Virus record (IMG/VR): IMGVR_UViG_3300032331_001429
Location: 1 to 56,894 of that record
Direction: 5' to 3' (one strand)
Length of the DNA: 56,894 nt
DNA from: a virus
Taxonomy: Duplodnaviria; Caudoviricetes
The notes beneath the pieces are model-generated. The model was not told the origin of the DNA, ran no database searches, and saw only the letters and a program-made list of their open reading frames with translations. A program made the position numbers and the translations under genes. Each line of letters begins with the position of its first letter. Positions within the stretch are counted from its first letter, which is position 1. Positions 5,758 to 24,633 of the stretch are shown one piece after another.

Positions 5758-8700
5758 TATTTCACCGTAGAATTAGTTTCTACATAAGAAGGACCGAATA
5801 TAGTCTCAAATACTTGTTCTGCAGACTTATTTAGATCCCTCATACTCCAGAATGTATCATTAAAATTAATTGCCCAAATAGGATCGTCAGTATCCATACC
5901 GGCTAAAAAGGGTAATCCGTTAAAGTAAATTGGACTAAGTATTACAGGTAGTTGTTGAGTTTTTTGTGCGTTTTCTACAAAAGAACTGGTAGTCAATATT
6001 CTAAAACTAGTATGAGTAATTTGATTTGCCAGACCAGTAGATGCCCAATTTAGGAAGTAAGTATTAGCAGCACCTCCATATTTAGCCATAAGTCCGCCTA
6101 GTGCTTTAAATGGACTTCCTCCAGAGCCTAGCAGGATTCTTCCTACCTCAGCAGAGTTTTTTCCAAGTGCTGTTAATCGGCCTACAACTGCTTTTGTTCT
6201 GCCACTAGAAAGCACAGCTTTTAAAGAAGCTTTAATTCCTTCTTTTACGCTAAAAGCTCCAGGAGCCAATGCAGTGCCTCCACCTAGAGAAGCAACAATA
6301 ATTGCTATAGTTATTGCGTCTGATACCCAATCTATGGTTTTAAATACCTTATTAAAGGTATCTTCCATTGCGGCAGTTTGAAGTATTGCTGCTCCAGGAT
6401 TGGCGTCACAGACAGCCTGAGGACCAATATTGGTGACCCAGCCAGCATCAATAGACCAGTGGTGCACAACTGATTCTACCTCAAGCGGTCCAGTCATTTT
6501 TGTATATTCGTCGTTTATAATTATTCTATCATGAGGCTTCATATTTCTTCCTATAAGCATAAGTGTGCCTCTGTACATTCTTCTTATACCATCCGCTAGG
6601 TGAGTGCAAGCTAGCTTTGCCGCTAGCTCGTTGGACTGGCAATTTAGTTCTGTAAATATTTTTAGCTTCTTATTAGCTAAAGTAAGTCCAGGGTGGAACT
6701 GTAATCCCATGACTCCAGACACTTCTTGCTTAGGATAGTACACCCATTTTATACCAGAGTAAAAATCTCCTGACTTAAATAAAGATTCTTCATCATCTAT
6801 TTTAGCCACTGCTTCAGCATGTGCCGGATGCTCTACTATAACAGTATTCCACATATCTTTTGTACTAGCAACTATATCATTTTTTAGTATGTCATGATCA
6901 GAATCTATCCAATGATGCTGCCTAAACACTTGCATATTAGGGGGCAGCAGTCCGTCTATAGTTTTAATTTTATTTATTTCTGCTTGAACTTCTGGATCAT
7001 TACTTTTTAGATACTCATTAAAAAAGTATACAAATAATTTAAGTGTCAAAAGATTACTAGGATCTAGATTTTCATTTGAAGAATATCTTTTAGCTCGAAC
7101 ATTGTCTTCTATATCTACTCTTAGTTTCGCTGCTCTATCAAAAATACCTCTTATATCTTTCACGGCTGGCTGACTAGTAAATTGTAAAATTCCTCCTGGT
7201 CTTGCGTCTCTAATATATTTTCTTGTTGCTTCTTTATTTAAAGAATAAGCAACTACGGCATCTTCAAGACTTTTAACTTCTTTTATCCAACTCAATATAC
7301 TAGTTTTTACTTTATCACTAAGTTTGTCTTGATTAGATTGTAGTAGTTTAGTTGCATTCAGGCTTACCGTATGTTGTGTTATGTCATAATAATTTACAAG
7401 TTGTCCAAGAATATAAGGCTCTTGAACTTCAAAGAATGTTGCACCAACAACTCCTTGATTTGTGGCAACACTTCTTCCAAAGTTATTAGAGTCTTCTGTA
7501 TAAGGTTTATATGTGTCTAAGATACTTAGTATCACATCAGACATATTTTCAGTAAATTTAAATCTGTTTTCTAGCAAAGCATTAATTTCTGCCTCACTTA
7601 TTTCTTTAGAAGGTTGCAGTAGTTTAGGAAATTCAGTCTCTGCTCCTGGCCATTGTGTAAAAATATAATCTAAAGGAGTATCCATAATTGCATTTAAAAT
7701 AACAGGAATAGTGTTTCTTCCTAATTTACTTTGTATATTTCTATATGCTACTAAAGGAAGACTAGAATTGTCTATAGCTTTTTTCATCGCGCCACGGTAA
7801 GTATCCACATTTTTGCGATTGCCAATTAAAGTATTTCCTATTGTTACAACTTCATCTCTTAGCAATTTGTTTAATAATGTAAAGCAAGAAATATTTATAT
7901 TATATTCTAAGTTAAAATTATTGTAACTTCCAACATTTGGAACAAATTCATAGCCAGGCTCATTCCTAAACGCTGCAATTTTTATTTTTATAGATTGTAG
8001 ATCAGTAAGAACTTCTATATCAGAAACACCAGGACCCTGCCTACCGTTGTAGTCAGCAGCCGAAGTTTGATACTCAGTAGAAGTAGATAGATATTTATCT
8101 AGCCGATTATAATTCTGTTGAATATCATATTCTTTACTATTTTTAAATCCTTTTATAATAGAAGTAGTACTCTTGCTTGCATCTTTTTTATTATTGATAT
8201 ATTTCATCCAGCCACGGCGACCAGCTGGACCGCCCTTAGTAAATATATAAGGCTGATCAGGATGTCCAAAGAATAAGGTAGCTTCACCATCATAGGGTAC
8301 AACTGCTACTATTGCATTCCAACAGTGTCTGCTTGCTTCTTTAAAGACTTCCCAGGCAGGTTGCAACGGGACTACCCAGCTGTCGTTTATCTGAGAAGGC
8401 ATTATCTCAGACCAATTTCTCCAACCTACAACGTTATTGTAGGAAGGTAGATCTGCCCACCATATGTTTTTTAGTCTGGTGTCAAGACCTTGATTCTGTT
8501 TAGTTGTAGATTCTAGTCCAAAAAATTCTTTTACTGCATTTGTTATTGTATTGCCAACGTCTCTTGCTCCTGGTACAATGTCTACTCCATCTTGTCTATT
8601 TAATGCAATTTTTACAGCTTCTTGAACATCCTCAGTACGCAAATTTTTCAATATATAGTCACTAGTCATTTGAGGAAAGAAGTCTCCAAAGCCATCTGGA

Positions 8701-11700
8701 TTAGCATGCTGCATAGTCATTATGGCTAAATCTCTAGCTCCCCAATTCTTTACATTATCATTATAAAAGTTTACCTGTCTATTTATAAGTTCTGATTTCC
8801 AGCCTTGACATACAATAGTCAAAACATCTCCTGGTGATATTTCTACAATCTTTCCAGTAAATGCAATTTTTAGATTTTTAGGCATGGAGTCATACCCAAG
8901 TCTTATTTGTATAGCTCTACCTTCTACAATTTTGTATCTTTTTAAGTATCCTTCTACATTACTTCCTCTTAAATTTCCTGTAACTTTTTTAGTTATTGTT
9001 CCATCGTCACCCTTTACTGATACTACACCACCTTGGGGAAAAAACGAACTTTGAAGTAAAAATAACGGATCAGCAATTGTTATCACAGCTAAGTCCGCAT
9101 CGTCTTTATCCATTGTAATATCAACAGACATTATTGGATTTACAGAGAAGAAAGTATCATCTCCGTATAAATCAGACCCACGTTTTTCTAGTAAATAAAC
9201 TTTAACAGCCGGAAACATCTTACATGCGTTCTCATATATATCTGGCATTTGACTCAAGTCAGATCGTAAGCAGGCTGCGGTATTTTCATCAAGTGACCTT
9301 ATAAATTCAAATTCATTTACTCTATCTGCAGATCTTTGTGCTTCATCAGTATCTGAGTGCGGAAGTCTGCTATTAGGCCTAAGCAGTTTATAATCTTTTG
9401 CTACTTTATATATTTCGGCAGCTACTCCTGGTACTGTTAATTGTTTTCTTCTTACCACATTATTATTGTGGTGCACATATACACTAAGTTTTTTATCTCC
9501 TCTCATATACTCTTGCTCAAATTTATCTAGGGCAGCTATAGATAATTGATTCATAGTTTCATTATAAGCTGTCTCATCATTATAATAAGCTTTTTGAAAA
9601 GATTTTCTAATTATTTTAGATAAACTTTCTTGGAGTTTATGCTTTTTCCCTTGTTCAGTTTCTCTTGCCAGCTGACTTGCGAGACCTTCTATTTCGTTTA
9701 TATCATCTACTTCAAACGGTAATGACAATTGAAGTTCGTGACCTATTGCAGAAACATTGTTAGCTCCTGCTCTTATTTCCGCTAATAGTTTTGGTTTATA
9801 TTTTTCATTAAAGAGCCAAGCAGAAGGAGGTACAGTATCATTTTCATCAACAGCTAAGACTAACTGGTCTTCTGCATTTGTTTGATTAGTTCCTTTTTGC
9901 CCACTTGAGTTTACAATACCAAGATCATCGTAAGTTGGAGCAAATTCCTTCCAAAGATCTCCATATAATTTACTATATTTTGGTAAGAACAGATCTTCAT
10001 ATACAGATTTCTTAAAGTAAGAATTTATTGCTGTAGAATTAGAATCAGTAGCACTAGGATCGGTAGGGTAAGTGCCAGAATCTCCAATATATTTAATTAG
10101 TAACTTTAAGAATGCGGCGTCTAACCCTTCAACAGAATATATTTTAGACAAAGATTGTTGGATAGGACCCTTTCTTCTTACTACTACTTCAAATAAAGCG
10201 TTAATAAATTTCTGACTAAACTTTGTTGTAGACTTGGATAAATCTTGAACTGCTTGTCCACTCTCATTTGTAAAATCTAAAAACCCAGTGTAGTCTCCGT
10301 ATAGACTAGCAAACAGCCGTGAGGTAAGGTTATTTATATCAATTGGGTTTAGGGCAGGGTTGTTCTCTGTGCTATTACTGGTAAAGTCAAACATACTTTG
10401 TACATATTCTTTTACTATATTATAAACATTTGCATAATCAATCTCGTCAGGACCAAATACCATAGCTTGTAATTGATCTACACTTTGCCTTACTCTGTAT
10501 ACAATATTAGGCAGGCTTGCTCCTGTAGCTACTTTACCAGAAAAAAGTGGAGTTGCTTCTAGAGCTATAGCAAGTCGTTCGGAATAATCAAAAGAGGAGT
10601 CAAGCAGTACGGCTTTTAAAGTATCTCTATTAAGTATACCAAATGTTTCTAAAGTACCAAAATCTATATTACCATTAACTATTGGCCAAAATGTACTAAA
10701 TGCGTCAAATAAATTAGAGCCATCTGTTGTAGAATCTTGTCCTGTTATTGCATTTGCTAATCCAGATGGATTAGTAATAAGTTGTAGTCTAAATTGATAT
10801 TCTTTTGCTACTAGACCTTTAAAATATTTTTTCAAATCTTCATAGTCAGATCCGCCTTGTAATAGCTTGACTTCTGAATTGGTAAAAAAGTCAATGTTAC
10901 TTTCTGCCATGTCTAGTCTAACAGTTTTTGTAAGAGGCTGTTCTCCATTCTCTATAGAGACATGCAAAGGAACAAATGTATTACTTTTTGGTCTTCCAGA
11001 GATGTATCCTCTGTCTCCGGCTGGTTCTGCTAAAAGTTTAGCAACTGGACTATTAAGTACCCAACCCGCAACTCTTGCAAATCTATCTTTAGCTCGTGCT
11101 ATATAATCTGAACTTTCTTTAAACAAACAGAACTTACGGAAATCTGTATTATTTTCTTGATCAGCAAAAAGTAGATCTACAGAATAAAATCTAGATGTTG
11201 CTCCCATGTGTTGAGGAAAAGGTATGCCTTTGCCTATACAGTTTTTATAAGAAAATAAATTTTTTATATTACTAGATTCACTATAGACTTTAGTATTTTT
11301 ATTGTTGACAAAACTTAACTTAGTAAGGTCTGAAACATTTGGCTCAATTACCTCTCCTGTAGAGTACTCTCCATACCAACTAATTTCTACACCACTAAAA
11401 TCTTCTGCAGTAACGGTAGGAATCATATTATCATCTAAAGCAATATCTAACCATTTATTTAGATAGTAAGCATCCGAGCCATATGGACTTCTTTCTGGTT
11501 TTGTTTTGCCTTGATATAAAAGTTCTCCATTTGGATATATAGCTGACACATCTACCCTAGTCATAGTTAACGTAACGTACAAAGCGTAAGGAATATCTGG
11601 TACAGAAGCTAAAATAAGTTCATCTAGAGCAACCGGAATAAACCCAGTGTAGTTGCTTTTTTTCTTTTGATTATCTGTAGTGGCCGTTAAAGTAGTAGGA

Positions 11701-12008
11701 TCTACTTGGTTTGCAGCCAAATTCCAGCACTCACTTATAAGCTCATTATAAACAGATATAATAGGACAAGATCTAAATAAAGCTATCAGTTTTCTTAGAT
11801 CACTATTAATTTCATAGAGTCCTGTAAAAAGCAACCTGACTATAGCTTTTTGATTAGTAGCACCAGAATCCGAAACAAAATTTTTATTGGTTCTAGTAGA
11901 AGGTAAAACCTGTACAGCTTTTTCTTCTTGAATACTTATGTCCTGTACTTGATATGTAAATCTTAGTGGACCAATCTCAAGGGCAGACTTTGATATCTGT
12001 GATGTCAT
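5757..12008 (-). CDS. Giant baseplate hub protein (T4 gp27 / Mu gp44-like core with large extensions)
   Basis: 2083 aa; hub-like motifs GRAIQIRLGY...AFTGKIVEI...LTIVCQG, AWEVFKEA, and MYRGTLMLIGRNMKPHDRIIIND...LEVESVVHHWSIDAGWVTNI; located between tape-measure locus and wedge genes. Confidence 0.7.
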   Translation of the reverse strand: MTSQISKSALEIGPLRFTYQVQDISIQEEKAVQVLPSTRTNKNFVSDSGATNQKAIVRLLFTGLYEINSDLRKLIALFRSCPIISVYNELISECWNLAANQVDPTTLTATTDNQKKKSNYTGFIPVALDELILASVPDIPYALYVTLTMTRVDVSAIYPNGELLYQGKTKPERSPYGSDAYYLNKWLDIALDDNMIPTVTAEDFSGVEISWYGEYSTGEVIEPNVSDLTKLSFVNNKNTKVYSESSNIKNLFSYKNCIGKGIPFPQHMGATSRFYSVDLLFADQENNTDFRKFCLFKESSDYIARAKDRFARVAGWVLNSPVAKLLAEPAGDRGYISGRPKSNTFVPLHVSIENGEQPLTKTVRLDMAESNIDFFTNSEVKLLQGGSDYEDLKKYFKGLVAKEYQFRLQLITNPSGLANAITGQDSTTDGSNLFDAFSTFWPIVNGNIDFGTLETFGILNRDTLKAVLLDSSFDYSERLAIALEATPLFSGKVATGASLPNIVYRVRQSVDQLQAMVFGPDEIDYANVYNIVKEYVQSMFDFTSNSTENNPALNPIDINNLTSRLFASLYGDYTGFLDFTNESGQAVQDLSKSTTKFSQKFINALFEVVVRRKGPIQQSLSKIYSVEGLDAAFLKLLIKYIGDSGTYPTDPSATDSNSTAINSYFKKSVYEDLFLPKYSKLYGDLWKEFAPTYDDLGIVNSSGQKGTNQTNAEDQLVLAVDENDTVPPSAWLFNEKYKPKLLAEIRAGANNVSAIGHELQLSLPFEVDDINEIEGLASQLARETEQGKKHKLQESLSKIIRKSFQKAYYNDETAYNETMNQLSIAALDKFEQEYMRGDKKLSVYVHHNNNVVRRKQLTVPGVAAEIYKVAKDYKLLRPNSRLPHSDTDEAQRSADRVNEFEFIRSLDENTAACLRSDLSQMPDIYENACKMFPAVKVYLLEKRGSDLYGDDTFFSVNPIMSVDITMDKDDADLAVITIADPLFLLQSSFFPQGGVVSVKGDDGTITKKVTGNLRGSNVEGYLKRYKIVEGRAIQIRLGYDSMPKNLKIAFTGKIVEISPGDVLTIVCQGWKSELINRQVNFYNDNVKNWGARDLAIMTMQHANPDGFGDFFPQMTSDYILKNLRTEDVQEAVKIALNRQDGVDIVPGARDVGNTITNAVKEFFGLESTTKQNQGLDTRLKNIWWADLPSYNNVVGWRNWSEIMPSQINDSWVVPLQPAWEVFKEASRHCWNAIVAVVPYDGEATLFFGHPDQPYIFTKGGPAGRRGWMKYINNKKDASKSTTSIIKGFKNSKEYDIQQNYNRLDKYLSTSTEYQTSAADYNGRQGPGVSDIEVLTDLQSIKIKIAAFRNEPGYEFVPNVGSYNNFNLEYNINISCFTLLNKLLRDEVVTIGNTLIGNRKNVDTYRGAMKKAIDNSSLPLVAYRNIQSKLGRNTIPVILNAIMDTPLDYIFTQWPGAETEFPKLLQPSKEISEAEINALLENRFKFTENMSDVILSILDTYKPYTEDSNNFGRSVATNQGVVGATFFEVQEPYILGQLVNYYDITQHTVSLNATKLLQSNQDKLSDKVKTSILSWIKEVKSLEDAVVAYSLNKEATRKYIRDARPGGILQFTSQPAVKDIRGIFDRAAKLRVDIEDNVRAKRYSSNENLDPSNLLTLKLFVYFFNEYLKSNDPEVQAEINKIKTIDGLLPPNMQVFRQHHWIDSDHDILKNDIVASTKDMWNTVIVEHPAHAEAVAKIDDEESLFKSGDFYSGIKWVYYPKQEVSGVMGLQFHPGLTLANKKLKIFTELNCQSNELAAKLACTHLADGIRRMYRGTLMLIGRNMKPHDRIIINDEYTKMTGPLEVESVVHHWSIDAGWVTNIGPQAVCDANPGAAILQTAAMEDTFNKVFKTIDWVSDAITIAIIVASLGGGTALAPGAFSVKEGIKASLKAVLSSGRTKAVVGRLTALGKNSAEVGRILLGSGGSPFKALGGLMAKYGGAANTYFLNWASTGLANQITHTSFRILTTSSFVENAQKTQQLPVILSPIYFNGLPFLAGMDTDDPIWAINFNDTFWSMRDLNKSAEQVFETIFGPSYVETNSTVK

Positions 12009-12016
12009 AATTTGTT

Positions 12017-12679
12017 TTAGATTCTTTTACCTGCAATGCTGTAATGATTTACAAGCGATTTGATAATATTACGTCTATCTTTTGGTGTAGATTTATCTAG
12101 TATATTTTTAGTTAATATTTTTGATTGTATTGGCGACAGATTGTCAACAATACCATTTGTACTCTCATAGGCGTTTAGTGAGTTATTAAACTCTTGTCCG
12201 CCTAATATCTCAGTTCCAACCTTTTGTTTTTCATCTAGTTCTCCCTGGCCTCTATTTGATATTTCAATATCTATGACGTTAGGAATAAAGACTGGGTTAA
12301 ATCGGACATAGACAGAGCCAAACAAAGCTGAGGCTAGAGATTGAACTACATTTAACATTATAGATGTGCCTGTGCCTAATGTTAAAGTAATTGAATTTAC
12401 TTGTGAGACAGATGAAACTGCAGAGCCTATGGTAATATATGAATTTAAAGCTGCCTTGTAGTTAGTATAGGAAGTCCCAATTAAAGCAACCCTAGCTTTG
12501 CCAATAGCATTTGTCCCAGGAGAGCTAGAAACTAAAATGTAACTAGGAGGATTAATTTTAGCGCCAGAACCTACCTCTGAAATTTGTATATAGACACTGC
12601 TGTCCTCCTGAAAGTAAGCTGAATAACAAGAACTAGTTACAGGTGCAGGATAAAAGATTGTTCCAAGTTTTTTTGCCAT
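12017..12679 (-). CDS. Hypothetical tail-region protein
   Basis: 220 aa Ser-rich ORF tightly packed between the 1635-aa gene and the hub gene. Confidence 0.45.
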   Translation of the reverse strand: MAKKLGTIFYPAPVTSSCYSAYFQEDSSVYIQISEVGSGAKINPPSYILVSSSPGTNAIGKARVALIGTSYTNYKAALNSYITIGSAVSSVSQVNSITLTLGTGTSIMLNVVQSLASALFGSVYVRFNPVFIPNVIDIEISNRGQGELDEKQKVGTEILGGQEFNNSLNAYESTNGIVDNLSPIQSKILTKNILDKSTPKDRRNIIKSLVNHYSIAGKRI

Positions 12680-12681
12680 AG

Positions 12682-15600
12682 TTAGTAAGCGAAATCACTT
12701 TCGCTCTCCATATCCATTTGCCGCCTAATAAGCCAAGAATTATTTCTTGACGCGGTCTTATCCTCAATAATTACACGATTATTTACTCTATTGTCAAAGA
12801 AATTTGAATTTACAGAACCAAATTTTTGATTATATCTAAACCTTCCTGCAGATGGAGTGAAGTTAGAACTGTTAATTCTAGGTGGAGCTTTCATATTGGG
12901 AATGGACGGACCCATATCCATAGGCCTAGAGGTGTCCGAAGGAGGAGGTAAAGAGGCTGTAGATAAATCCGGTGCCGTCATTCTATTGATAGCCCCTATG
13001 CCAGCTAAAGCCGCTACACCTACTAACGCTGGAGCAAAAAGTTTACTTTCACTTAGAGCTCTCAAGCTTCCGAGCATATCAGTTTTTATAGAAGATATCC
13101 TCTGTCCAAATGTACTTGGACCTGGTATTACTGCTTTTCTAACTTTTGCAGCCTGTCCTGGTGTTGCTCCTCCTATGCCACTGCTCAAAACTTTTTCTTC
13201 TTCAGGAGCAAAAATTCCTGCTAAAGGACCAAAAACTTTCTTGAATAAAGTTTTCTGGTTATAGAACATATTTTCATCTTCAGCAAATGCTGCTACTGTT
13301 CCAAGGTTACCAACCTTAGGCGCTATGGCATAGCCAAGACCAATAGTCTGTGCCATCATAATAGACGCCTTCCTAAGCATGTATTCTTCAGAACCTTGCT
13401 GTGCTCCTTTTAAAAGTCCTTCTAGTACCTTAGGAGTGCTTGTTCTATTTAGAATAAATCCAGCTTGGAATATTCTATTTGTATCTTGTCCTTTGATGAA
13501 CTCATAAAACAGATCAGAAGCTTTTTCTATAGACTTAACAATATTTAAACCACCAACTGCAGTCTGTTCTCCTAGTTCTAGTAAGCCTATATTTAATTGT
13601 TCTTGTCCTACCTTAGAAGTACCTTTCTTAACACCTGCTTGAAATAGATACTGAGATAAAGAAAAAGATGCAGCATATTTTTGCTCAAAGAACTTAGTGC
13701 CCGCTCCTAAAATACTTTGCATTTCTCTGAGCTCTGCTTGACTTATATCTACTTTTATGCCTCTTTTTTCAAGATCAAGTATACTACTTGCTCCCGCTAA
13801 AGCTGGTATAAGTCTTTCTACAGTTGGTCTAACTGCTGAATAACCTAAAGAAGCAAAACTTTTTTGACCGGTAAACGCCGCAAAGATGTCCCCTACTACA
13901 GTTTGTTGCGCAACACCTTTAGCTGTGGTTGCAGCATCTCTAAAAAACTGCAATGTAGGTTCTATTGCTCTTGCTTGTCTAGCTATTCTGTTTCTATACT
14001 CTTTTGACCTGCCAGATAATAATGATATTGCTATTGCATCATTATCGACGTCTCTCTCAAACATCTTGAATGCAAGAGGATGCATCTGGACGTCTAGTCC
14101 AAGTTCTGAGACGCGGATATTACTAGCAGCCGTTAGAGGTGTGTCTACAATTCTAAGCCTGAACACTGACATGTGTTCTGCTCTTTGAGTCGGATCTGCC
14201 ATAAACATGGAGTATATAGAATTTTCATATTTAGCCTTTCTTAAAAGCTCGGCATATTCCGCCTTTGACTCCTTAGTAGCATTAGCCCCTAAGAAAAATC
14301 CTTGTCTTCTTTCGATAGAAGCTATTAATTGCTCTCTAGATACAGCTCCCTCAAATATTCTTCTGGAGCTTCCCATATTAGCTAAATCATGTATTGTAGT
14401 TTGCTGAGGAACCAGCCTAGCTCTGTATCCTGCACCAAGATGTATGGTGTTCATTTTTGCCAGGATACCTTTTTTGCCTCCTAGCTTGTCAAATATAGCT
14501 TGGATTGCTCCCTGTACACTTCCTCTAATTTCAGCTTCTGTTTGTCCTGAACCAAGAGAAGCAAGCATCTTAAGAACATTATATGCAGGATGAGTTTTAC
14601 CTAATATAACTCTTCCGTCCGTAGCTTGCTCTGTTCTTAATAGAGCTCTAGGAATAGGTATGTACCTATGTTCAAGTTTTCCTAATATTTCTTTACCTTC
14701 TTTATCAATTCCTTTTCCAAGGAGTCCTAGTTTTCTTTTTTGTCCTAAATCAAGATAAAAGAAATCACCCAAGTCAGGATCAAGGAGTGTGCCTTTTATT
14801 TCGGCCCTTGATACACCGCCAGCTTTTGCTGTAAACTGTTTTATATCAGGTAATTTCTTTATTCCTTTTCCGCCTAGAAGTAATTCACCATTTTGGCCTA
14901 TTGTTATTACTTGACTTTCTAATGGCTTAACAGCACCTGGCTCAGCTAGTCCTTTTAAAAATTGTTTTATGGGATGCTCATCTGCTAAAACAAAATCTTT
15001 CTTAGCATGATCCCATCCAAACATCTTAAATTGGAAGGCAAGATCTCTTACTAATGGATCTTGCATTGCATTTTCATATCCAAGTAGTCCACTGCCCATT
15101 GCGGCAGTCTTAAATTTACCTAAGGTAATTCTAAGTCTGTTTCTTAAGTTTGTATCAAGTCTTTGATCTGATCTTTTGAATCCAGAAACGGATATAATTC
15201 TAGCATCTTCTATAGCATCCTTTAAACTTGTTCCGCCTAAAATTTGCTGGACAGCAGAAGTAATATTAATTCCTTTTCTAGCTTCTTCCGCTATCTTGCG
15301 ATAAGTACCTCCTCTACTTCTTAAATCCTTTATTACTTTTATGGCCTGAGCAACTGCTTCTTTTTTATTAGTTGCCATAGAGGCAGTAAGAGTTTGACCT
15401 CCGACTCTGGCTACTTTTGCGGTTCCTAGTAAATGCTCATATTCACTTGAAACTCCGTGACGATATAACGTTGCGTGGAAGTTGTCTAAAAATCTATCTA
15501 TTTTATCTATTTTTTGTATATCTTGTGATCCTATAACAGCTTCTACACCAAGACCTTTAGCTCCTTTTACTCTATTGGCATCTAATTGATGTAGCAATCC

Positions 15601-17589
15601 TCCTAAAACGTTTCCTTGTCTTACTCCTACTCCAGTTAGTCTTATACCACCTATTACAAATCCTGCAGAGCCAGCAGCCATTTCTTTTATACTTTGAAGT
15701 CTCAACGACAAAGTTCCTGATGTATATTTAGGAGAAACTAGAACTCCTCCGCCTCTTGCTCCCGCAAAATTCATAGGTTCAGCGCCAGGAAGTCTTCCTC
15801 GTGCCAGCATCTCAAATATACCAAAATCCTGCCTAGGAGCCATCACGATCTCTCCGGTGGCTATATCTTTAGTAGGAGCATACATCAATGTGCTAAGAGC
15901 TTTCTCTCTTTGAGTTAATACTTTATTTCTAAACTTTTTCGTGGCTCCTGAATATTTAACAACGTTTTCAAATTCTTGCTCATTGATTTGTAGCATCCTT
16001 AAATTTTCATCAAGAGCGCTACCTCCAGTTAGAGTTTCGTATGCTCTAAGTACTCTACCAGTAGGACCTTTTATTTTAACCGTGTCCAGGTACTGTCGAG
16101 ATGCACTGGCCTCCAAACCAGTTGCTGTCATGAGCATACCAGAATCCTGGAAGACTGTTTGATATGCGTTTGATCCTTTAAGTTTTAAAGATAGAACTGT
16201 ATAAGGACGTCTTGATCCAATTATGTCAACTCCAGTAGCACTTCTAGCTGGTGTACCTGCGTAAAATTCACTTTCTGTCATGAAGTACGGAACAGGTCTA
16301 GCTCCAGCTTTTTGTATTTTTCTTGCTATAGATCGTGTAATTGGAGAAGCTTTATATACCTGATGATAACCTTTTGTTTGAAATCTTTCTGAGAACTGTG
16401 ATCCAAATATATTTGCAGCCTCTGGAACAGGCATTACAATATTCTTTAGTGCATCAACTAAAAAATCTGCTTTTGTTAAAGGATGCATTCCGGCTACGCC
16501 AAGTTTTGCAAATGCAGTCGGTAAGTATTCGTTATAGCTTTTAACTACTTTATAGGCCTCTCTTAAAGCCATAGAAGGACTTATTTTTGCTCCGAGCCTT
16601 CCTGCTCTTATGACATTTAAGAAACCAACGTCGTCGGGAACACTTACTCCTCTACTTTTGATGACTTGACTTATGACTCTTCTAGCTTCAACATACTCTT
16701 TATGCTTTGCAAATATTTCGGCAACCTGTCTAGTCTCTCCCCTGGCTTGGAACTCTTGTAGCACTAAAGCCTGCTGGCCTCTGTACATTGCAGTAAGAGC
16801 AGTATCAGACATTCCTCTAATACTAGGTCCTGGAGCAAGTAGGCTTTTTAGTCTAACCTTCCCTGCTTTAGCAGAAGCGCCAGCAGCAAACCCTCCTTTG
16901 ACTCCTTCACCAATGACGCTTTCTTGGATTCTTCCTAAGCCCCTCATAAACACTGAGAGGTCTTCTGGAGTTACATTTTTATTATACCTAGTAATAAGGC
17001 TATTTAATCTATCAAAAAATTCTTCAGAATATGAGGTTCTTATTACAGGTGCATCTGGTCCATAAAATCCAGGTTCTTGAATTTTTGTAAGTTGATAAGC
17101 AGATCTTCTTGATCTACCTAATTGAACTAAGCCACCTTCTAAAGTTCCTCTTTCGGCTTGAACAGGAAGAGGTGTATAGCCCATGCCCGCGCTACCTAGA
17201 TAAATTTCTTTTCCCTTTCTTAGTATTTCTATATCAGGCATCCTTTTAGATAATATGGCAAACGACTTTCCAGTTTCTTTTCCTCCTAACTGTCTTCCTA
17301 TATCTAAAAATTCTTTAGAATCCGAAGATATTCTTTCGAACTGATTGTATCTTCTAAATATTTGATAAGGATCAGTTTCTCTGATAAGGTGAGATGGTCT
17401 ATCTATCGGAGCAAAACCCAGCAGCTCTCTGAGTCTGCCTAGCTTGGCTAGATAAGTTTCGGCAGGTAAGCTACCTTTAAGATTTTGTTTTGCTGATGAA
17501 CCTTTGTTTATAAAGAGATCATCTATAATAGCTTGAGTAGGATTGTCTCCTTTAGCTCCTAAGTAGTCACCAATATTTTTGCTAGCCAT
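12682..17589 (-). CDS. Putative virion-associated single-chain two-barrel (DPBB) RNA polymerase-like protein
   Basis: 1635 aa. Collinear RNAP-like motifs recognised by eye: VFQDSGMLM (beta FEDS), GVEAVIG (beta PVDIVLN), YIPIPRALLR...DGR (beta-prime lid), EIRGSVQGAIQAIFDKLGGKKG, MFMADPTQ...SVF (beta-prime NRAPT), QMHPLAFKMFERDVDNDAIAI (beta-prime QLHPL...NADFDGD). C-terminal hydrophobic helix. Confidence 0.75.
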   Translation of the reverse strand: MASKNIGDYLGAKGDNPTQAIIDDLFINKGSSAKQNLKGSLPAETYLAKLGRLRELLGFAPIDRPSHLIRETDPYQIFRRYNQFERISSDSKEFLDIGRQLGGKETGKSFAILSKRMPDIEILRKGKEIYLGSAGMGYTPLPVQAERGTLEGGLVQLGRSRRSAYQLTKIQEPGFYGPDAPVIRTSYSEEFFDRLNSLITRYNKNVTPEDLSVFMRGLGRIQESVIGEGVKGGFAAGASAKAGKVRLKSLLAPGPSIRGMSDTALTAMYRGQQALVLQEFQARGETRQVAEIFAKHKEYVEARRVISQVIKSRGVSVPDDVGFLNVIRAGRLGAKISPSMALREAYKVVKSYNEYLPTAFAKLGVAGMHPLTKADFLVDALKNIVMPVPEAANIFGSQFSERFQTKGYHQVYKASPITRSIARKIQKAGARPVPYFMTESEFYAGTPARSATGVDIIGSRRPYTVLSLKLKGSNAYQTVFQDSGMLMTATGLEASASRQYLDTVKIKGPTGRVLRAYETLTGGSALDENLRMLQINEQEFENVVKYSGATKKFRNKVLTQREKALSTLMYAPTKDIATGEIVMAPRQDFGIFEMLARGRLPGAEPMNFAGARGGGVLVSPKYTSGTLSLRLQSIKEMAAGSAGFVIGGIRLTGVGVRQGNVLGGLLHQLDANRVKGAKGLGVEAVIGSQDIQKIDKIDRFLDNFHATLYRHGVSSEYEHLLGTAKVARVGGQTLTASMATNKKEAVAQAIKVIKDLRSRGGTYRKIAEEARKGINITSAVQQILGGTSLKDAIEDARIISVSGFKRSDQRLDTNLRNRLRITLGKFKTAAMGSGLLGYENAMQDPLVRDLAFQFKMFGWDHAKKDFVLADEHPIKQFLKGLAEPGAVKPLESQVITIGQNGELLLGGKGIKKLPDIKQFTAKAGGVSRAEIKGTLLDPDLGDFFYLDLGQKRKLGLLGKGIDKEGKEILGKLEHRYIPIPRALLRTEQATDGRVILGKTHPAYNVLKMLASLGSGQTEAEIRGSVQGAIQAIFDKLGGKKGILAKMNTIHLGAGYRARLVPQQTTIHDLANMGSSRRIFEGAVSREQLIASIERRQGFFLGANATKESKAEYAELLRKAKYENSIYSMFMADPTQRAEHMSVFRLRIVDTPLTAASNIRVSELGLDVQMHPLAFKMFERDVDNDAIAISLLSGRSKEYRNRIARQARAIEPTLQFFRDAATTAKGVAQQTVVGDIFAAFTGQKSFASLGYSAVRPTVERLIPALAGASSILDLEKRGIKVDISQAELREMQSILGAGTKFFEQKYAASFSLSQYLFQAGVKKGTSKVGQEQLNIGLLELGEQTAVGGLNIVKSIEKASDLFYEFIKGQDTNRIFQAGFILNRTSTPKVLEGLLKGAQQGSEEYMLRKASIMMAQTIGLGYAIAPKVGNLGTVAAFAEDENMFYNQKTLFKKVFGPLAGIFAPEEEKVLSSGIGGATPGQAAKVRKAVIPGPSTFGQRISSIKTDMLGSLRALSESKLFAPALVGVAALAGIGAINRMTAPDLSTASLPPPSDTSRPMDMGPSIPNMKAPPRINSSNFTPSAGRFRYNQKFGSVNSNFFDNRVNNRVIIEDKTASRNNSWLIRRQMDMESESDFAY

Positions 17590-20500
17590 TATCTGTATTC
17601 TCTTCTGTAATTATTTTTTACTTCACTAGATCTATCCATTTGTATTCTAGTAGTAAACCTAGCGCCATGTGAAGTTCCATTCATAGTACTTGCTCCTAGA
17701 CCTTGAGCAATATTTTGCCCAACTGTTTGATAGAAGTTGTTTAAACTAGAGTAGTTAGGTGGAGCTGTAAATGTTACTGATTGCTCTGCAAGATCAGGAT
17801 ATATCTGATTTAAAGTTCTTTCGTGAGACTCATAGAAACCAAATCTATGGTAATTATCTGATATACCATTTAAACCATGTTGAATCATCTTCAGTTTCAT
17901 AGATGGTGTATCCACTGAAGGATGCCATCCTAGCCAATCTGAAGACGGAATTTCTCTTTCGCTGAAGTACTCAGCAACTTCTTGATCTGCTGTTGCTTGC
18001 CTATTCTTACCGCCGGACCAATATCTGTTTAAGGCATAGCCCATGTAAGCAGGCAATCCTTCAACTAGTTCTTGTCTATTTTCTTCCGGGGTTTGCGCAA
18101 ATATGTCAAAGTATCTTTTATCAGATGATCTAGGAAGACTTGCTCTTATAGTCATAGGATTAGTTGCGCCCACCATAGTCTTACCCTGCATTTTCTTAAA
18201 CTGACTAGACAGGCCGGGCATACCTGCAGACAAGGTATAATTTTCTAGAGATCTATTTTTTAGATAGGTAAGCTTGTCTAAGTATTCTACAGCGTCAGAT
18301 TCCGCCTGGACATGTTCAGGCACATAATTGCTTGGTAAGCCTCCCATAATTCTAGCTGTACTTACTCCAGCGCCTAAAACTGCGCCAGCACTAATTGCAG
18401 GTAGGTTAAGGGCGGAATGCAGACCGCCTGCGGCATTAGCCAAAGGATTCATAAATCTTAAAGGACCAGACATCATAAAGGCTATACCGGCGCCTTTTAC
18501 TGCTCCAATAATAGGATTGGAAAGAGCCGTGTCAGTAATTGCAGGACGAACTATATCTTCGTATGGATGGAACCAAGATGGGAATTCAGATCCTTCAACA
18601 TATTGTTTTCTATATTTTTCATAAGGATCTCTAAACGGAGCAAGTTTAGAACCAAGCCATGGAACTTCTGCCAATATATCATGAGTGACAAAATCATATA
18701 GACCTCTAGTTACGTCATATATAGGATTGCTTCCTAGCTCATTATTTATGTTGATCAAAGAATCAATATGTCTAGGATATCTATTTTCTATAGAGGTCAT
18801 TCCTTTCTTATAATCCAAAGCTCGTTCTACTTTTGCCTGATAATAAGGATCAAGCTGCATTCCTTGTACTTGTTTTTTATATGTCTTAAAAGCTTGGCTA
18901 TAGGGAGCAACATCCGCAAGTATCAAAAATTTATCTACAACGTCATACTCTCCAGGTCTACCTGAGTGTAACTTATTTAATGCTTCATATCCAGGTCCAG
19001 GCAATCTAGACTCTGCGTCCTCAATTTTAAGGAATGGATCTCCCGAAGAAAAATCTATAAAGTAACTCTTATCTCTTTCAAACTCGGAGCCTTTTCCAGG
19101 CAAGAAGCTAGGCATTGTGTTCCTAGTTCTATTAACCATTGAAGCAGTGTTAGCCGTTATACCGTAATCAGACAACATAAATCTTCTTAGGAATTCTGTC
19201 TGGCCAAACGCGCCACCTAACTGCATTGCATATAATCTTCTAGCAGGCGAGTCTAGCATACTAGAATCGGCCCTCTCCTGGAAACTAGGAGTAAATTTTA
19301 CTCCAAAGAATTCCATAGCAAATTTATAGACACCAAGCGGTTCTGTAGCAATATTAGCCATTTTCTGCAATCTTGCTATTGGATCATCATAGCTAGGTGC
19401 AGTAGAGTTTATTTCTGGAATGCCCAGGTCTCTGGCAGTACTTGGATCAAGGCCTTCTGGCAGCACTCCTTGGTTGGATAAGTATTTTTCAGGAGGCCTT
19501 TCTATAGTTGGCTTTATAAGTTTACCTATAGTAGATCCAAGTATAGGACCAAATACAGGAACGTTTTCAAACATTGGACCAGTAACTTCATAAGGTCTGG
19601 TGCCTTTGTTTATTTCTTCTAACCTATAAGGATTAAATATATTAAGCAATCCACCTAGATTGCTAGGCGTGGGAAATGGTATGCCAAAAACATTACTATG
19701 ATAAGTATAGTACTCATCTTTTGATCCATAAGTAGATCTATATCTATAATCTGACATTAACTTATGGTACCAGCTATAATCATATCTAGATATTTCTCCA
19801 CCCTCCATGGGTGTATTACCCATGAACCAGAATCTTCCTTTTCTTATAGGTACTTTTCTTTCTCCAGAATATTCTTCAATTAATTCTCCTGGACTTTGTC
19901 CTGGAGACTCTCCGCCTATCAATGCTAGGACAGCACCTGCTCCTGCTAGAGCCTTGCCTATGGTTGTGCTTTTAGCTAACTTTGCAAAGGTAGCGACAGG
20001 AGCTGCAATATTTCTTAATACAAAACCAAGACCGCTGTCTACAGATCCTGGATAGTTTTCTTCTAAAGCTTTTAAGCCTTGCTGTACGCCTACGGCACTT
20101 CTGGCCGACTGTTGAGCAATCCTAAGTCCGGCGTAAATGCTAGCTAAAGTTTTCTTTGGAGATATGCCTGTTATAGATTCTGATACATAGTCGGCGTAAT
20201 CAATAGCTTCTGCTGCGGCTCCATATATTATAGGAACTGCAGCCAGTCTGGTTAAGTTACCGACTAGACTCTTGGCAGGGGCATAGCTTATTCCAGCTAG
20301 GGTTGCCGAAGCTAAATGGGAAGTTCTAAAGGCAAGGTAAGAAGTAAGATCTTTAGTGGAAGTAATTCCAGGAATCAATCTACTCTCTGGAGCAGCATAA
20401 AATAGCGGTTTTTCTACACTAGGCTTAGATCTATATGCCTCATCAAGAGGACTTCTTTTGATAGTGTATCCACCAGATCCTACAGGGGCAGTAAAGTATT

Positions 20501-21899
20501 CTTCTGGTCTTATATAAGTTCTTTCTCCAGCCAGAAGTTTCTGCCTTATTCTTGCTGCGCCAGTATTTTTAACTAAGGAAAATTTAGGACTTAGATCAAA
20601 TATTGTCAATAATTTTTCATACCAAGGTAAGTCTTTAAAGTCTGTACCAGCTCCTACAGCTTTTCCGGCCTTAACAGATTTTTGAATTAACTCTGGAGCT
20701 TCTGCTCCTACAGCTTGATCAACAAATGTAGATATATAATCCTGTTTACCAGTTTCTACAGAAACAAGTTGAGCTTCTCCTTTAATTAAAGCTCTAGTTC
20801 TTTTTATTGGATTTATAAAAGCTAGATCAAAAAATGATCTTCTAGAAGAAAAACTAGTACCAACTCCGGTAAGTTTTTCAAATTTACTTACAAGTTGCCC
20901 TACTGCACTAGTCCTTTGTTTTACATCTAATTGTAATCTATCTTCCCTAGCTGCTCTTATCGGTTCTAAACGATCTCCAATTCTTCTTAATTTTTGTCCA
21001 GTCTGAAGTACTTGTTCTTCTATTACATCTCCACTAACCTTACTATAGCCAAGTACATTCCCTCCAATAAAATACCTAGGACCACTGAATGAGTCGGTAC
21101 CACCTAGGACTGCTACAGCTCTTTTTTCTCCAAACAAAGATTGAAATACATTAAATTGTCCAAATAGATCTACCTTAGGAACAAGACCAAAATTATAGTT
21201 CTTGTCCTGCACAGACTTCATAAACACACTTCTGAGTCTTGTGTCTCTTATAGACCCAGATACAGTTGTGTAAATATTTTTATCTAATACAGTGGAGTGA
21301 GATACTAATCCTTCTTCTACTGCTTCAGTTAAAGTATTCCACTGATTCTTTCCTATAACGTTATACCATCTACTTTGATTGCTAAGAACTTCTCCAACGG
21401 TTGCTCTTTGAAGTTTATCTCCAAAAAAGCTTGTATGGTTACCGTAGTTTACATGGCGACGATTTACAAATTCTGTTAAACGTTCTTTAAGAGTATTTCT
21501 GACTTCTCCGGCAGCTGTGCCTCCCAGGATATCCATACTGCCAGAAAGATCTTGAATAAGATCTATAGGCCCTAACTGTAAAGTGTTTTTCTTTATATTG
21601 AATACACTGTTAAGTAGAGACTTTATACCAGACGCACCGCTAGCTGCTGTAGAAGCACCAGAGTTTGCTATCTTGTCGACTTCTGTATTTAGAGCAGTTG
21701 GATGCCCCAAGAAGTGCAACATGTTAGCATATATATTACCCTCTCTAGCTAACTGAGTTTTAAATATCTTAGCGCCTAGGGCAACAGCGCCTATACCTGC
21801 TGCCCAAGGTAATAACCAGCTAGAGTTATCCCTTTGCTGTTCAGCAATTTCTTGCTGACGCTTTTGAATAATATAGTTTGGTTCTTCTGGAGGGGGCAC
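17589..21899 (-). CDS. Tape-measure-like / DNA ejection protein
   Basis: 1436 aa (GTG start overlapping the upstream TAG) directly after the chaperone-like pair; several Gly/Ala-rich hydrophobic segments (WLLPWAAGIGAVALG, ALAGAGAVLALIGG, AISAGAVLGAGV). Confidence 0.6.
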   Translation of the reverse strand: MPPPEEPNYIIQKRQQEIAEQQRDNSSWLLPWAAGIGAVALGAKIFKTQLAREGNIYANMLHFLGHPTALNTEVDKIANSGASTAASGASGIKSLLNSVFNIKKNTLQLGPIDLIQDLSGSMDILGGTAAGEVRNTLKERLTEFVNRRHVNYGNHTSFFGDKLQRATVGEVLSNQSRWYNVIGKNQWNTLTEAVEEGLVSHSTVLDKNIYTTVSGSIRDTRLRSVFMKSVQDKNYNFGLVPKVDLFGQFNVFQSLFGEKRAVAVLGGTDSFSGPRYFIGGNVLGYSKVSGDVIEEQVLQTGQKLRRIGDRLEPIRAAREDRLQLDVKQRTSAVGQLVSKFEKLTGVGTSFSSRRSFFDLAFINPIKRTRALIKGEAQLVSVETGKQDYISTFVDQAVGAEAPELIQKSVKAGKAVGAGTDFKDLPWYEKLLTIFDLSPKFSLVKNTGAARIRQKLLAGERTYIRPEEYFTAPVGSGGYTIKRSPLDEAYRSKPSVEKPLFYAAPESRLIPGITSTKDLTSYLAFRTSHLASATLAGISYAPAKSLVGNLTRLAAVPIIYGAAAEAIDYADYVSESITGISPKKTLASIYAGLRIAQQSARSAVGVQQGLKALEENYPGSVDSGLGFVLRNIAAPVATFAKLAKSTTIGKALAGAGAVLALIGGESPGQSPGELIEEYSGERKVPIRKGRFWFMGNTPMEGGEISRYDYSWYHKLMSDYRYRSTYGSKDEYYTYHSNVFGIPFPTPSNLGGLLNIFNPYRLEEINKGTRPYEVTGPMFENVPVFGPILGSTIGKLIKPTIERPPEKYLSNQGVLPEGLDPSTARDLGIPEINSTAPSYDDPIARLQKMANIATEPLGVYKFAMEFFGVKFTPSFQERADSSMLDSPARRLYAMQLGGAFGQTEFLRRFMLSDYGITANTASMVNRTRNTMPSFLPGKGSEFERDKSYFIDFSSGDPFLKIEDAESRLPGPGYEALNKLHSGRPGEYDVVDKFLILADVAPYSQAFKTYKKQVQGMQLDPYYQAKVERALDYKKGMTSIENRYPRHIDSLININNELGSNPIYDVTRGLYDFVTHDILAEVPWLGSKLAPFRDPYEKYRKQYVEGSEFPSWFHPYEDIVRPAITDTALSNPIIGAVKGAGIAFMMSGPLRFMNPLANAAGGLHSALNLPAISAGAVLGAGVSTARIMGGLPSNYVPEHVQAESDAVEYLDKLTYLKNRSLENYTLSAGMPGLSSQFKKMQGKTMVGATNPMTIRASLPRSSDKRYFDIFAQTPEENRQELVEGLPAYMGYALNRYWSGGKNRQATADQEVAEYFSEREIPSSDWLGWHPSVDTPSMKLKMIQHGLNGISDNYHRFGFYESHERTLNQIYPDLAEQSVTFTAPPNYSSLNNFYQTVGQNIAQGLGASTMNGTSHGARFTTRIQMDRSSEVKNNYRREYR

Positions 21900-22537
21900 T
21901 AGAGAGCTCTAAACATTTTATTGTCCGCGTCAAAGTCTGGCTTATCAGCAGCTTCTCTTGATAGTATTGCTGCAGCTTCTGGAGACATTTGCTTTTTTCT
22001 TCCTTTCTTGTCTGTAGAAGTAGTCGGAGTCTGAATCTCTAATTTTCTTCCTAGAGTAGACTCAGCTAACACCAGGTATTTACTTTGCTCTCTAGCGGTT
22101 ATTCTTTTGTGCTCTTTACCCAATATATTGCCAGTACCAGCTAATATAGTATTTTCTATTAACCCCTTGTCCGTGCCTATTTTAGCTCTTTCTTCCTCTA
22201 AACTTTTGTTAATGACCTGGATATCCCCAGGAGAAGATAAGAGCAATACAGACGAAGATAGAGCTTCTACAGCCCCTGCTGGGGCGTCATTTAGAAGATA
22301 ATCTTTACCACAGGTAGATAATAATAAAGCTTTAGCTATTATCCACTCGTCAATAATATACTCAGGGATAGTTTCTGATAAGGAAGCTATGGAGTCTAAT
22401 TCAGAAAGATATAAAGGTCTAAATACAAACTTGTCTCCAAATAGCTCATATAAAAAAAGCTGCTCAACCCTCTCGCGAAGATCGAGCAGCAAAAAACTGA
22501 ATTGTTCGGAGGTTATCCTAGATGCGTTAGAGTCCAC
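21899..22537 (-). CDS. Tail assembly chaperone-like protein 2
   Basis: 212 aa; shares FRPL..E and PAG....LS motifs with the upstream 122-aa ORF; sits between tube genes and tape-measure-like gene. Confidence 0.55.
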   Translation of the reverse strand: MDSNASRITSEQFSFLLLDLRERVEQLFLYELFGDKFVFRPLYLSELDSIASLSETIPEYIIDEWIIAKALLLSTCGKDYLLNDAPAGAVEALSSSVLLLSSPGDIQVINKSLEEERAKIGTDKGLIENTILAGTGNILGKEHKRITAREQSKYLVLAESTLGRKLEIQTPTTSTDKKGRKKQMSPEAAAILSREAADKPDFDADNKMFRAL

Positions 22538-22540
22538 ATC

Positions 22541-22909
22541 TCATAGTTCCTGAGGTTCTACTTCATCACCGAAGCCTGAGGCTTCCATTATAAGCTCAGA
22601 GAGCGAAGGTATAATACCAGCAGGTAAGGTAGCCAGGTCAAGCTGACTTCCTACCTTTGGATGAAGTACTGCGCGCAGGAATAGTTCCTCTTCTCCCTCC
22701 TCTTTCAGGAGGCTGAGTTGCGTATCTGCTGTTTCTTGTGAACTAGCCTTCCTGATAGCCTCAGTTTTGTCCGCCATCTTTTTCTGGATGTCACGGAATT
22801 CTTTTCTTGTTAAGCTTCTATAGATACACTCAATACCGGCCACCTTAGCCTTAAAGACTCTGTGTCCGTTTGCCTTTGCTGTATCAATTATTGATTGTGT
22901 GTCACTCAT
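22541..22909 (-). CDS. Tail assembly chaperone-like protein 1
   Basis: 122 aa; IYRSLTRKEF...LPAGIIPSLSELIMEASGF; canonical chaperone position. Confidence 0.6.
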   Translation of the reverse strand: MSDTQSIIDTAKANGHRVFKAKVAGIECIYRSLTRKEFRDIQKKMADKTEAIRKASSQETADTQLSLLKEEGEEELFLRAVLHPKVGSQLDLATLPAGIIPSLSELIMEASGFGDEVEPQEL

Positions 22910-22910
22910 A

Positions 22911-23633: not shown

Positions 23634-23642
23634 AGTACTGCT

Positions 23643-24581: not shown

Positions 24582-24593
24582 AGCTACTCTCTT

Positions 24594-24633
24594 AAATGGA
24601 AATGGAGGAACGGACTGTTGCCCGCCCCTCCAT
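24594..24633 (-). terminator. Stem-loop after tail tube gene (probable weak/partial intrinsic terminator)
   Basis: Minus strand AUGGAGGGGCGGGC-AACA-GUCCGUUCCUCCAU (14-bp stem with G-U pairs) followed by an interrupted U tract (UUCCAUUU). Confidence 0.6.

Follow-up and report, generated by a model that had tools for sequence, protein, structure and literature searches.

The tail module of a virus record raises the question of what kind of protein is encoded by a giant gene that lies where a tape measure is expected and carries an acidic loop like that of RNA polymerases. The window analysed here is the whole of IMG/VR record IMGVR_UViG_3300032331_001429 (56,894 bp, estimated to be 29% complete), and its long open reading frames (ORFs) all lie on the minus strand, to which the window coordinates of all features below refer. 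The gene under study, ORF B (P0001; 12682..17589), begins with ATG and encodes 1,635 residues with no Cys and a net charge of +67. A preliminary description of the window had proposed, from motifs compared with Escherichia coli strings, that ORF B is a single-chain fusion of the beta and beta' subunits of RNA polymerase. Its ORF coordinates and all the P0001 strings that it quoted were found at the residues and positions given, and all eight E. coli strings were located in K-12 RpoB (809 and 1093) and RpoC (241, 295, 331, 351, 422 and 448). It had also anticipated that standard annotation would miss the gene, and P0001 indeed has no match in Pfam, PHROGs, NCBIfam or the sequences of the PDB. 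From the analyses below we propose, with a probability of about 65%, that ORF B encodes a single-chain two-barrel polymerase of diverged sequence, which sits in the tape-measure slot, bears the C-terminal tape-measure module of its lineage and is delivered through the tail.

A word-indexed search recovered 16 relatives of ORF B, with identities down to 28%, and an exhaustive profile search recovered 73 representatives at E ≤ 0.001 (47 of them at E ≤ 1e-30). These 73 are clusters at 50% identity from metagenomes, which makes the family a sizeable one. Its members are 1,450-2,100 residues long. A distant subfamily (alignment A6) aligns with the ORF B family over 958 columns (hhalign, E 7.5e-41), and the N-terminal 900 residues of ORF B are conserved together with the core in both subfamilies. 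The RDxDxD loop, in the form RDxD[NRK]D, occurs in 77 of 80 family sequences, and the other three sequences are fragments of 390-728 residues that match elsewhere in the protein. Eleven residues are invariant in the 69 full-length sequences (K406, R650, R806, R1058, P1133, R1179, D1180, D1182, D1184, Q1317 and K1322). Conservation of the three aspartates in homologues had been named beforehand as a check on the proposal, and all three are in this set. In the 69-sequence alignment, conservation over 30-residue windows peaks at residues 1163-1192, centred on the DxDxD loop. Judged from the sequence, the three acidic and six basic invariant residues resemble a nucleotidyl-transferase site. Conservation did not favour all of the proposed motif sites equally: four of the seven fall within the eight most conserved 30-residue windows of the 69 sequences, and three (GVEAVIG, EIRGSV and RYIPIP) do not.

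To compare the family with beta', we used hhalign with family alignment A3 and a profile built from 80 proteobacterial beta' sequences. Against E. coli RpoC alone, the best match of A3 was the acidic loop (RpoC 446-481, E 0.015), and against the beta' profile the match extended over 78 columns (RpoC 406-483; E 0.0023, probability 12.7%). When the query was trimmed to residues 940-1330, the match had an E value of 0.00061 and a probability of 28.6%, and the 69-sequence family alignment gave E 0.00098; the match covers 78-80 columns at default settings. The best match of subfamily A6 alone was again in this part of beta' (RpoC 331-466) and collinear, yet its E value was 0.19. The real beta' score of 39.8 compares with 23.7 for the reversed profile and with a mean of 18.5 (standard deviation 2.9, maximum 27.5) for 60 block shuffles, none of which reached 39.8. 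Five other giant tail-module proteins scored 17.5-25.6 against the same profile and the family of the upstream giant protein, ORF A, scored 20.2, and in none of these controls was the loop matched. The likeness of ORF B to beta' exceeds chance, and the beta' half of the proposed fusion is favoured by this score (39.8 against a shuffle maximum of 27.5), while its second barrel, placed at residues ~470-700, was not recovered with a beta profile or in the PDB.

As for the low significance of these matches, two accepted single-chain two-barrel polymerases compared as single sequences, gp96 of Thermus phage P23-45 and gp99 of phage 0305phi8-36, scored only 22.1 and 21.6 against the beta' profile, so weak significance is normal for this superfamily. 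The survey in PMC10770324 likewise states that non-significance is usual for two-barrel superfamily searches. The best match between our family and gp99, a polymerase of the Pfam RdRP family, was also the DxDxD loop (E 0.08-0.13).

The individual motifs place the likeness along the protein. The candidate Mg-binding catalytic loop, E1178-R-D1180-V-D1182-N-D1184 (14038..14058), lies within the string QMHPLAFKMFERDVDNDAIAI (from residue 1168), in which the three aspartates occupy 14038-14052, and aligns with the DxDxD inside RpoC 446-481. Upstream of it, the block D1132-PTQRAEH-1139 (14173..14196), part of the string MFMADPTQRAEHMSVF (from residue 1128; 14161-14208), aligns in hhalign with beta' LLNRAPTLHRLGIQAF (RpoC 422); at this site the distant subfamily carries RP[TS]PTH, and P1133 is invariant in the 69 sequences. 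The block GGKKG...YRARLVP (residues 1037-1061; 14407..14481), made up of the ORF B strings KLGGKKGIL at residue 1035 and YRARLVP at residue 1055, lies opposite IKGKQGRF and GRSVITV (RpoC 331-357) in a low-confidence part of the extended hhalign alignment; R1058 is invariant in the 69 sequences, and K1039 only in the 16-sequence A1 alignment. RYIPIPRALLR (residues 975-985; 14635..14667, within a string spanning 14611-14667) is placed opposite beta' VLPVLPPDLRP (RpoC 241) only by the loosened hhalign alignment, and its P978 and R985 do not vary among 16 sequences. A further beta'-like string, EIRGSV..., begins at residue 1020.

With the threshold loosened, the alignment is collinear through RYIPIP/VLPVLPP, GK.G/KGKQG, DPTQR/APTLH and ERDxDxD/NADFDGD, so that four of the five beta' motif pairs in the preliminary description were recovered in order, and YRARLVP was placed differently. 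The spacing also agrees: the GK.G block precedes the next motif by 20 residues in both proteins (P0001 1035 to 1055; RpoC 331 to 351), and that motif precedes the APTLH-type block by 73 residues in P0001 (1055 to 1128) and by 71 in RpoC (351 to 422). Our best reading is that residues ~970-1200 form a beta'-type catalytic barrel with the invariant DxDxD loop.

The region expected to hold a beta-type barrel contains the invariant residues K406 and R650, the latter within GGIRLTG (15631..15651), the beta-like strings YQTVFQDSGMLM (from residue 476; 16129-16164) and GVEAVIG (residue 681; 15529-15549), and an acidic-Gly motif, FQDSG (residues 480-484; 16138..16152), that is conserved as [FQG][DE]xG. 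Neither the beta profile nor the PDB gives a match here, and the assignment of FQDSG as the acidic site of a beta-type barrel was not upheld by either search. Further along the protein, the second most conserved window (residues 803-832, RSDQRLDTNLRNRLRITLGKFKT; 15094..15183), which includes R806, has no counterpart that we could identify, and the third (residues 1311-1340, ..QYLFQAGVKKG..; 13570..13659) contains Q1317 and K1322.

Several results count against ORF B being a two-barrel polymerase. In hhalign the beta-like half matched the beta profile only at E 0.059 and on an unrelated stretch, and the beta profile had no similarity to subfamily A6 or to the 69-sequence alignment; the beta-like sub-profile returned 11 weak matches from the whole PDB, none of them an RNA polymerase. 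Nor was a bridge helix found by hhalign. The best Smith-Waterman alignment of residues 1195-1450 with RpoC 481-1000 places 1282-1337 on RpoC 733-797, the F-loop and bridge helix, and 72 of 200 shuffles reach its score; a bridge-helix start at residues 1311-1340 is possible and not supported statistically. The hhalign probabilities against beta' are low (3-29%). In HMMER searches of 177,635 PDB sequences, a five-sequence catalytic sub-profile had an RNA polymerase beta' subunit, 9gdo_D, as its sole match (GK.G and loop, E 1.2). A broader nine-sequence sub-profile lost 9gdo_D and gave three unrelated matches, and we therefore give this line little weight. The full family profile gave one spurious PDB match.

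Family libraries gave no polymerase match either: among 16 members searched with Pfam at E ≤ 10 no RNA polymerase family was matched and only RNase_T appeared, 20 distant members had no Pfam match, and PF00623 was not matched in any of the six frames of the window. Residues 1-1200 of P23-45 gp96 aligned with the family in hhalign at E 0.51, 0.16 and 0.52, never at equivalent motifs. The filter [RK]xPx{20,100}DxDxD of Chaban et al. (PMC10770324) is satisfied by only 8 of 77 members, and the survey table in that source includes the loop variants DNDKD and DDDKD in accepted phage polymerases. Searches for relatives of P0001, or of the distant member P0063, among cultured phages returned none. In G001, a complete relative described below, a crude k-mer hunt based on exact 12-mers and on 8-mer enrichment yielded no promoter motif specific to the phage. 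The ESM Atlas holds no model for ORF B, and feature matches there were below 0.9 and serve as leads only.

The position of the gene bears on its role in the virion. Three giant ORFs span the region from chaperone-like genes to the baseplate: ORF A (P0017; 17589..21899), of 1,436 residues with an N-terminal membrane helix and no Cys; ORF B; and ORF C (P0018; 5757..12008), an enlarged baseplate hub of 2,083 residues (phrog_20474, E 2.3e-27). Upstream of ORF A, two small ORFs of 122 and 212 residues (21899..22909) hold the position of a two-gene tail chaperone by synteny with gp143 and gp144 of 0305phi8-36; the XkdN-type/Phage_TAC_5 match at 22541-22909 is weak and under the cut-off (E 0.019). 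ORF A is a homologue of 0305phi8-36 gp145 and is related to ME3 gp035 and Moorella phage CDS0026, and ORF C is related by tblastn to the hub gp147 of 0305phi8-36. Across the window and six further loci with listed ORFs, out of eight loci, the order sheath, tube, small genes, A, B, variable gene, C (hub) recurs at four loci of the ORF B subfamily and two of the distant subfamily. Locus annotation and synteny confirm the position of ORF B, with the tail chaperones and the giant ORF A upstream of it and the baseplate hub downstream.

The 0305phi8-36 gene flanked by gp145 and gp147 is gp146, annotated as 'hypothetical tape measure protein; identified as virion protein by mass spectrometry', and the record annotates gp145 likewise as a virion protein confirmed by mass spectrometry. 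As described by Hardies et al. (PMC2147016), the tape measure was assigned to orf146 chiefly from tail length, just the last 60 residues are alignable among tape measures of this lineage, and the two-gene chaperone of 0305phi8-36 sits one gene away from the tape measure. We found no DxDxD in gp146 and no similarity to the ORF B core. The conserved C-terminal tail of ORF B (residues 1606-1635, ...IIEDKTASRNNSWLIRRQMD...SDFAY; 12685..12774) is common to both proteins: the family tail matches the last residues of gp146 in hhalign at E 0.02, and the sub-profile of residues 1500-1635 matches gp146 at E 0.0056 with a score of 22.5, compared with a mean of 10.4 (standard deviation 2.0, maximum 18.1) for 100 shuffles and 9.1-17.5 for seven other giant proteins. 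ORF B therefore has both the position and the C-terminal tail of a tape measure of the 0305phi8-36 lineage. Preceding this tail, a hydrophobic membrane-type helix (residues 1517-1535; 12985..13041) is followed by a proline-rich stretch, and a comparable hydrophobic 19-mer occurs within the last 220 residues of 43 of the 69 full-length members.

The composition of the family is also distinctive. Only three Cys occur in 120,204 family residues, with none in 78 of the 80 sequences, compared with an average of 0.81% for the proteins of the window. Cys is likewise absent from P23-45 gp96 (5,002 residues) and from the slot A and slot B proteins of 0305phi8-36, ME3 and the Moorella phage, in contrast to 8-12 in the hubs, 10 in the non-structural polymerase gp99 and 15 in RpoC. 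The absence of Cys may mark proteins that leave through the tail. From the synteny with virion proteins confirmed by mass spectrometry, the common C-terminal tail and the absence of Cys, we infer that ORF B is delivered in the virion.

The same observations would also be expected if ORF B were a plain tape measure, or another ejected protein of the tail lumen, in which RDxDxD is a structural Ca or Mg site or the site of a hydrolase or other non-polymerase enzyme and the likeness to beta' reflects convergence over a short acidic loop. The gene occupies the slot of an assigned tape measure and carries its C-terminal tail; it has no Cys, as in tape measures; and a language-model look-up of the C-terminal fragment P0053 gave tape-measure neighbours at 0.87, under the 0.9 threshold for a lead. 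The failure of polymerase family models to match ORF B, the missing beta-type barrel and bridge helix, and the fragile PDB match to beta' fit this explanation as well. Yet the likeness to beta' extends beyond the loop, over 78-80 columns and four collinear motifs with matching spacing, and its score lies above those of all 60 shuffles and all the giant proteins used as negative controls. Tape measures diverge so fast that only their last 60 residues are alignable in this lineage (PMC2147016), whereas the ORF B core is alignable over 958 columns; eleven invariant residues have polymerase-like chemistry, and repeated fusion to an exonuclease and a uniformly basic charge, described next, point to nucleic acid. 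We consider a plain tape measure unlikely, although it deserves to be kept in view.

All 69 full-length members have a positive net charge (median +45), and 14 of the 80 carry an intact DEDDh exonuclease domain (RNase_T, PF00929) in the N-terminal region, at residues ~60-235 or ~215-400, with the motifs FDLET, FDxPxL and AHxAxxD all intact (P0003, P0005-P0009, P0013, P0032, P0035, P0036, P0042, P0047, P0051 and P0057). The two different insertion positions suggest that the domain was acquired more than once; the ORF B of the window lacks it. The fusions and the charge together point to a protein that acts on nucleic acid.

The complete relative, G001, is 189,716 bp long, has terminal repeats and a CheckV completeness of 100, and contains one copy of the ORF B gene; no paralogue of the gene was found in it. 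Among its products are a family A DNA polymerase that has an exonuclease of its own, a ligase, ThyX, a primase-helicase and a RecA-like protein. No RNA polymerase or sigma factor was found in G001 among the 144 of its 182 ORFs that were searched with Pfam at E ≤ 1e-5 (the 38 omitted ORFs being the structural arm), and the majority of its ORFs have no Pfam match at all. PF05183 had no match in G001 or G002 and matched only orf99 of 0305phi8-36. As no other Pfam-detectable candidate is present, the ORF B homologue is the sole candidate for a transcription polymerase seen in G001. The virus of the window is probably a contractile-tailed phage of ~190 kb, and the family probably represents new tail-delivered two-barrel polymerases of jumbo myoviruses.

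A two-barrel polymerase in this slot might have an activity other than transcription of DNA, such as that of a DNA polymerase or primase resembling PolD, of a repair-type polymerase or of an RNA-dependent one, and be delivered with the genome, in some members paired with a proofreading-type DEDDh exonuclease. An intact DnaQ-type exonuclease, the usual partner of DNA polymerases, is indeed present in 14 of 80 members; the two-barrel superfamily includes PolD and QDE-1, the latter with dual template use according to PMC10770324; and the k-mer hunt in G001 yielded no promoter motif. But G001 already has a family A DNA polymerase with an exonuclease and a primase-helicase, it has no other Pfam-detectable RNA polymerase, the best matches of the family are to RNA polymerase beta', and 66 of the 80 members have no exonuclease. 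We regard such an activity as quite improbable.

The idea that the polymerase is split, with ORF A as the beta-type barrel and ORF B as the beta'-type barrel only, draws on an A-then-B order that mimics rpoB-rpoC with translational coupling, on the absence of Cys from both proteins and on the lack of a demonstrable beta-type barrel inside ORF B, yet it is very improbable and we rejected ORF A as a beta-like subunit, since its family bears no likeness to the beta and beta' profiles (E 0.16 and 0.46), homologues of ORF A occur in 0305phi8-36 and the Moorella phage, whose slot B has no DxDxD, and the N-terminal 900 residues of ORF B are conserved with the core across both subfamilies. As to variants of the ORF B family itself, the only split form found was a single fragment at a contig end, and the absence of longer fused forms from the sequences recovered is weak evidence.

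Returning to ORF B as a candidate single-chain two-barrel polymerase, the closest known arrangement is that of P23-45 gp96, reported in PMC10770324 as a two-barrel RNA polymerase of the virion to which the tape measure is fused, and the preliminary description cited this precedent correctly. Both proteins combine the tape-measure position with a polymerase-like module that contains DxDxD and precedes a membrane segment. Like ORF B, gp96 lacks Cys and is missed by ordinary homology searches, and its injection and a role in pre-early transcription have been proposed (PMC10770324). The two proteins differ in that they have no detectable sequence similarity, that the tail of P23-45 is non-contractile and that of ORF B's virus contractile, and that the catalytic loop is DFDGD in gp96 and RDxD[NRK]D in the family. 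ORF B shares the slot and the membrane helix, with ~130 residues after the helix, and has neither the 3,800-residue ruler nor the metallopeptidase domain of gp96. A second, non-virion paralogue, as in P23-45, was not found in G001.

Among cellular enzymes, the best profile-profile match of the family is beta', and RpoC ~240-480 shares with ORF B the collinear VLPVLPP, KGKQG, APTLH and NADFDGD blocks, with two near-identical intervals; it differs in the low probability of the match (3-29%), the lack of a Pfam RNA_pol_Rpb1 match to ORF B and the undetected bridge helix. ORF B is moreover a single chain without the zinc-binding cysteines of beta'. Coliphage N4 also injects a giant virion RNA polymerase that transcribes early genes, with a T7-like fold unrelated to the two-barrel fold.

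Phage 0305phi8-36 has the same operon order as the window (chaperones, gp145-like gene, slot B, hub), and its gp146 shares the C-terminal tail and the absence of Cys with ORF B, while lacking the DxDxD and the core. Its own two-barrel polymerase, orf99 (209484-211547 of L181; PF05183, E 1.1e-20; loop GGADTDGD; 10 Cys), lies away from gp146, so that in this lineage polymerase and tape-measure slot are separate genes. P0001 has no match to PF05183, the family of QDE-1/YonO-like polymerases. In crAss-like phage phi14:2, gp66 is, like ORF B, a giant protein of the virion module recognised by a DxDxD-type loop (10.1101/2020.03.07.982082; PMC10770324), and the products of the giant genes flanking it are also in the virion (10.1101/2020.03.07.982082). 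It differs from ORF B in that gp66 belongs to a podovirus-like phage, is described in these sources as packaged in the head and does not occupy a tape-measure slot.

On the proposed reading, ORF B would be made late with the tail genes and be translationally coupled to ORF A, whose stop codon overlaps the start codon of ORF B in the observed sequence TAATG. The protein would be loaded into the tail by way of its membrane-type helix and tape-measure-like C-terminal tail and expelled through the tube at infection. At or in the membrane, it would adopt the two-barrel fold, in which D1180, D1182 and D1184 would bind Mg2+ and the invariant basic residues would hold the nucleic acid and the incoming nucleoside triphosphate, and it would synthesize RNA from the first phage genes, possibly during DNA entry. 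Transcription of this kind has been proposed for P23-45 gp96 (PMC10770324).

A more far-reaching version, which we consider doubtful, is that a polymerase has taken the place of the tape measure, or that the tape measure has become one, throughout this lineage of ~190-kb contractile-tailed phages. A Cys-free, highly basic protein of ~1,500 residues would then lie extended inside the tail lumen until contraction drives it out. Its C-terminal helix would anchor in the membrane, and the protein would refold as a two-barrel RNA polymerase, transcribing the DNA as it enters and perhaps helping to pull it in; in one member in six an active DEDDh exonuclease would be delivered as well. If this were true, myoviruses would have arrived at the P23-45 arrangement a second time and independently, with ruler and enzyme in the same residues.

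In the literature that we searched, P23-45, a siphovirus, was the sole precedent, and we found no contractile-tailed phage described with a polymerase in its tape-measure slot; the ORF B family may nevertheless be one of the 23 aligned in Supplementary Data 3 of PMC10770324. If the fold and activity of ORF B hold, the family would be a new group of phage RNA polymerases missed by Pfam, PHROGs and NCBIfam, most of whose members also escape the motif filter of the published survey. Linkage of a polymerase to an inner protein of the tail would then be recurrent, extending beyond one Thermus siphovirus to contractile tails. Such a protein raises the questions of how a polymerase of ~1,500 residues passes through a 4-nm tube, how the same protein could set tail length and what purpose the fused exonucleases serve. 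For annotation, the combination of RDxDxD, zero Cys and the tape-measure slot provides a signature for a giant gene labelled 'hypothetical'.

Among other slot B proteins, gp036 of Acinetobacter phage ME3 (16355-21166 of L180) has 1,603 residues and no Cys, and its sequence GGDHDQDQAAV at residue 1217 resembles the acidic loop of beta' and has a comparable relative position in the protein; hhalign gave no support for a relationship of gp036 to the family or to beta', and no relatives of gp036 were found among cultured phages. In ORF A, 53 residues, many of them aromatic, Gly or Pro, are invariant out to gp145, ME3 gp035 and Moorella CDS0026, and its N-terminal membrane helix is conserved; its conservation far exceeds that of the slot B gene. 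A C-terminal motif common to ORF A and ORF B was considered and dropped, as it fails in loci L002 and L004.

The gene between slot B and the hub varies: it encodes 220 residues in the window (12017-12679), 1,022 in L002 (13465-16533) and 1,463 in L004 (12558-16949), the latter two versions containing Cys, and it is absent from L182 and L183. G001 (L172-L174) also encodes a Ro60/TROVE-like protein, a NADAR domain, a HAD_SAK_2 domain of RNA-repair type, a nicotinamide phosphoribosyltransferase and a PAS-domain protein.

The remaining genes of the window were identified with Pfam and PHROGs. They include the large terminase (42924-44795), the portal (38867-40978), the major capsid protein (34936-36315), the tail sheath (25352-27031; phrog_16991, E 5.6e-58), two tube-like genes, one of them at 24651-25337, a sheath initiator and Baseplate_J (2957-4108). 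A scan of 5000-24900 for sigma-70 promoters and terminators gave no excess over shuffles, and no such excess separates the genes; tRNA and Rfam searches of the window found nothing. A strong terminator-like hairpin (24602-24633; 14 pairs, 8 of them G-C) lies just 3' of the tube gene at 24651-25337 and might determine how much tube protein is made relative to the tail proteins encoded downstream.

Two adjacent ORFs at 45593-47532, of 218 residues (net charge +17) and 427 residues (net charge +40), contain no Cys and no Trp, match no family and adjoin the exonuclease and terminase genes; they may encode further packaged or DNA-binding proteins. In sharp contrast to the Cys-free giants of the tail, eight consecutive ORFs at 49894-56096, of 149-364 residues and with no Pfam match, contain 5-9 Cys each and may be a paralogous set.

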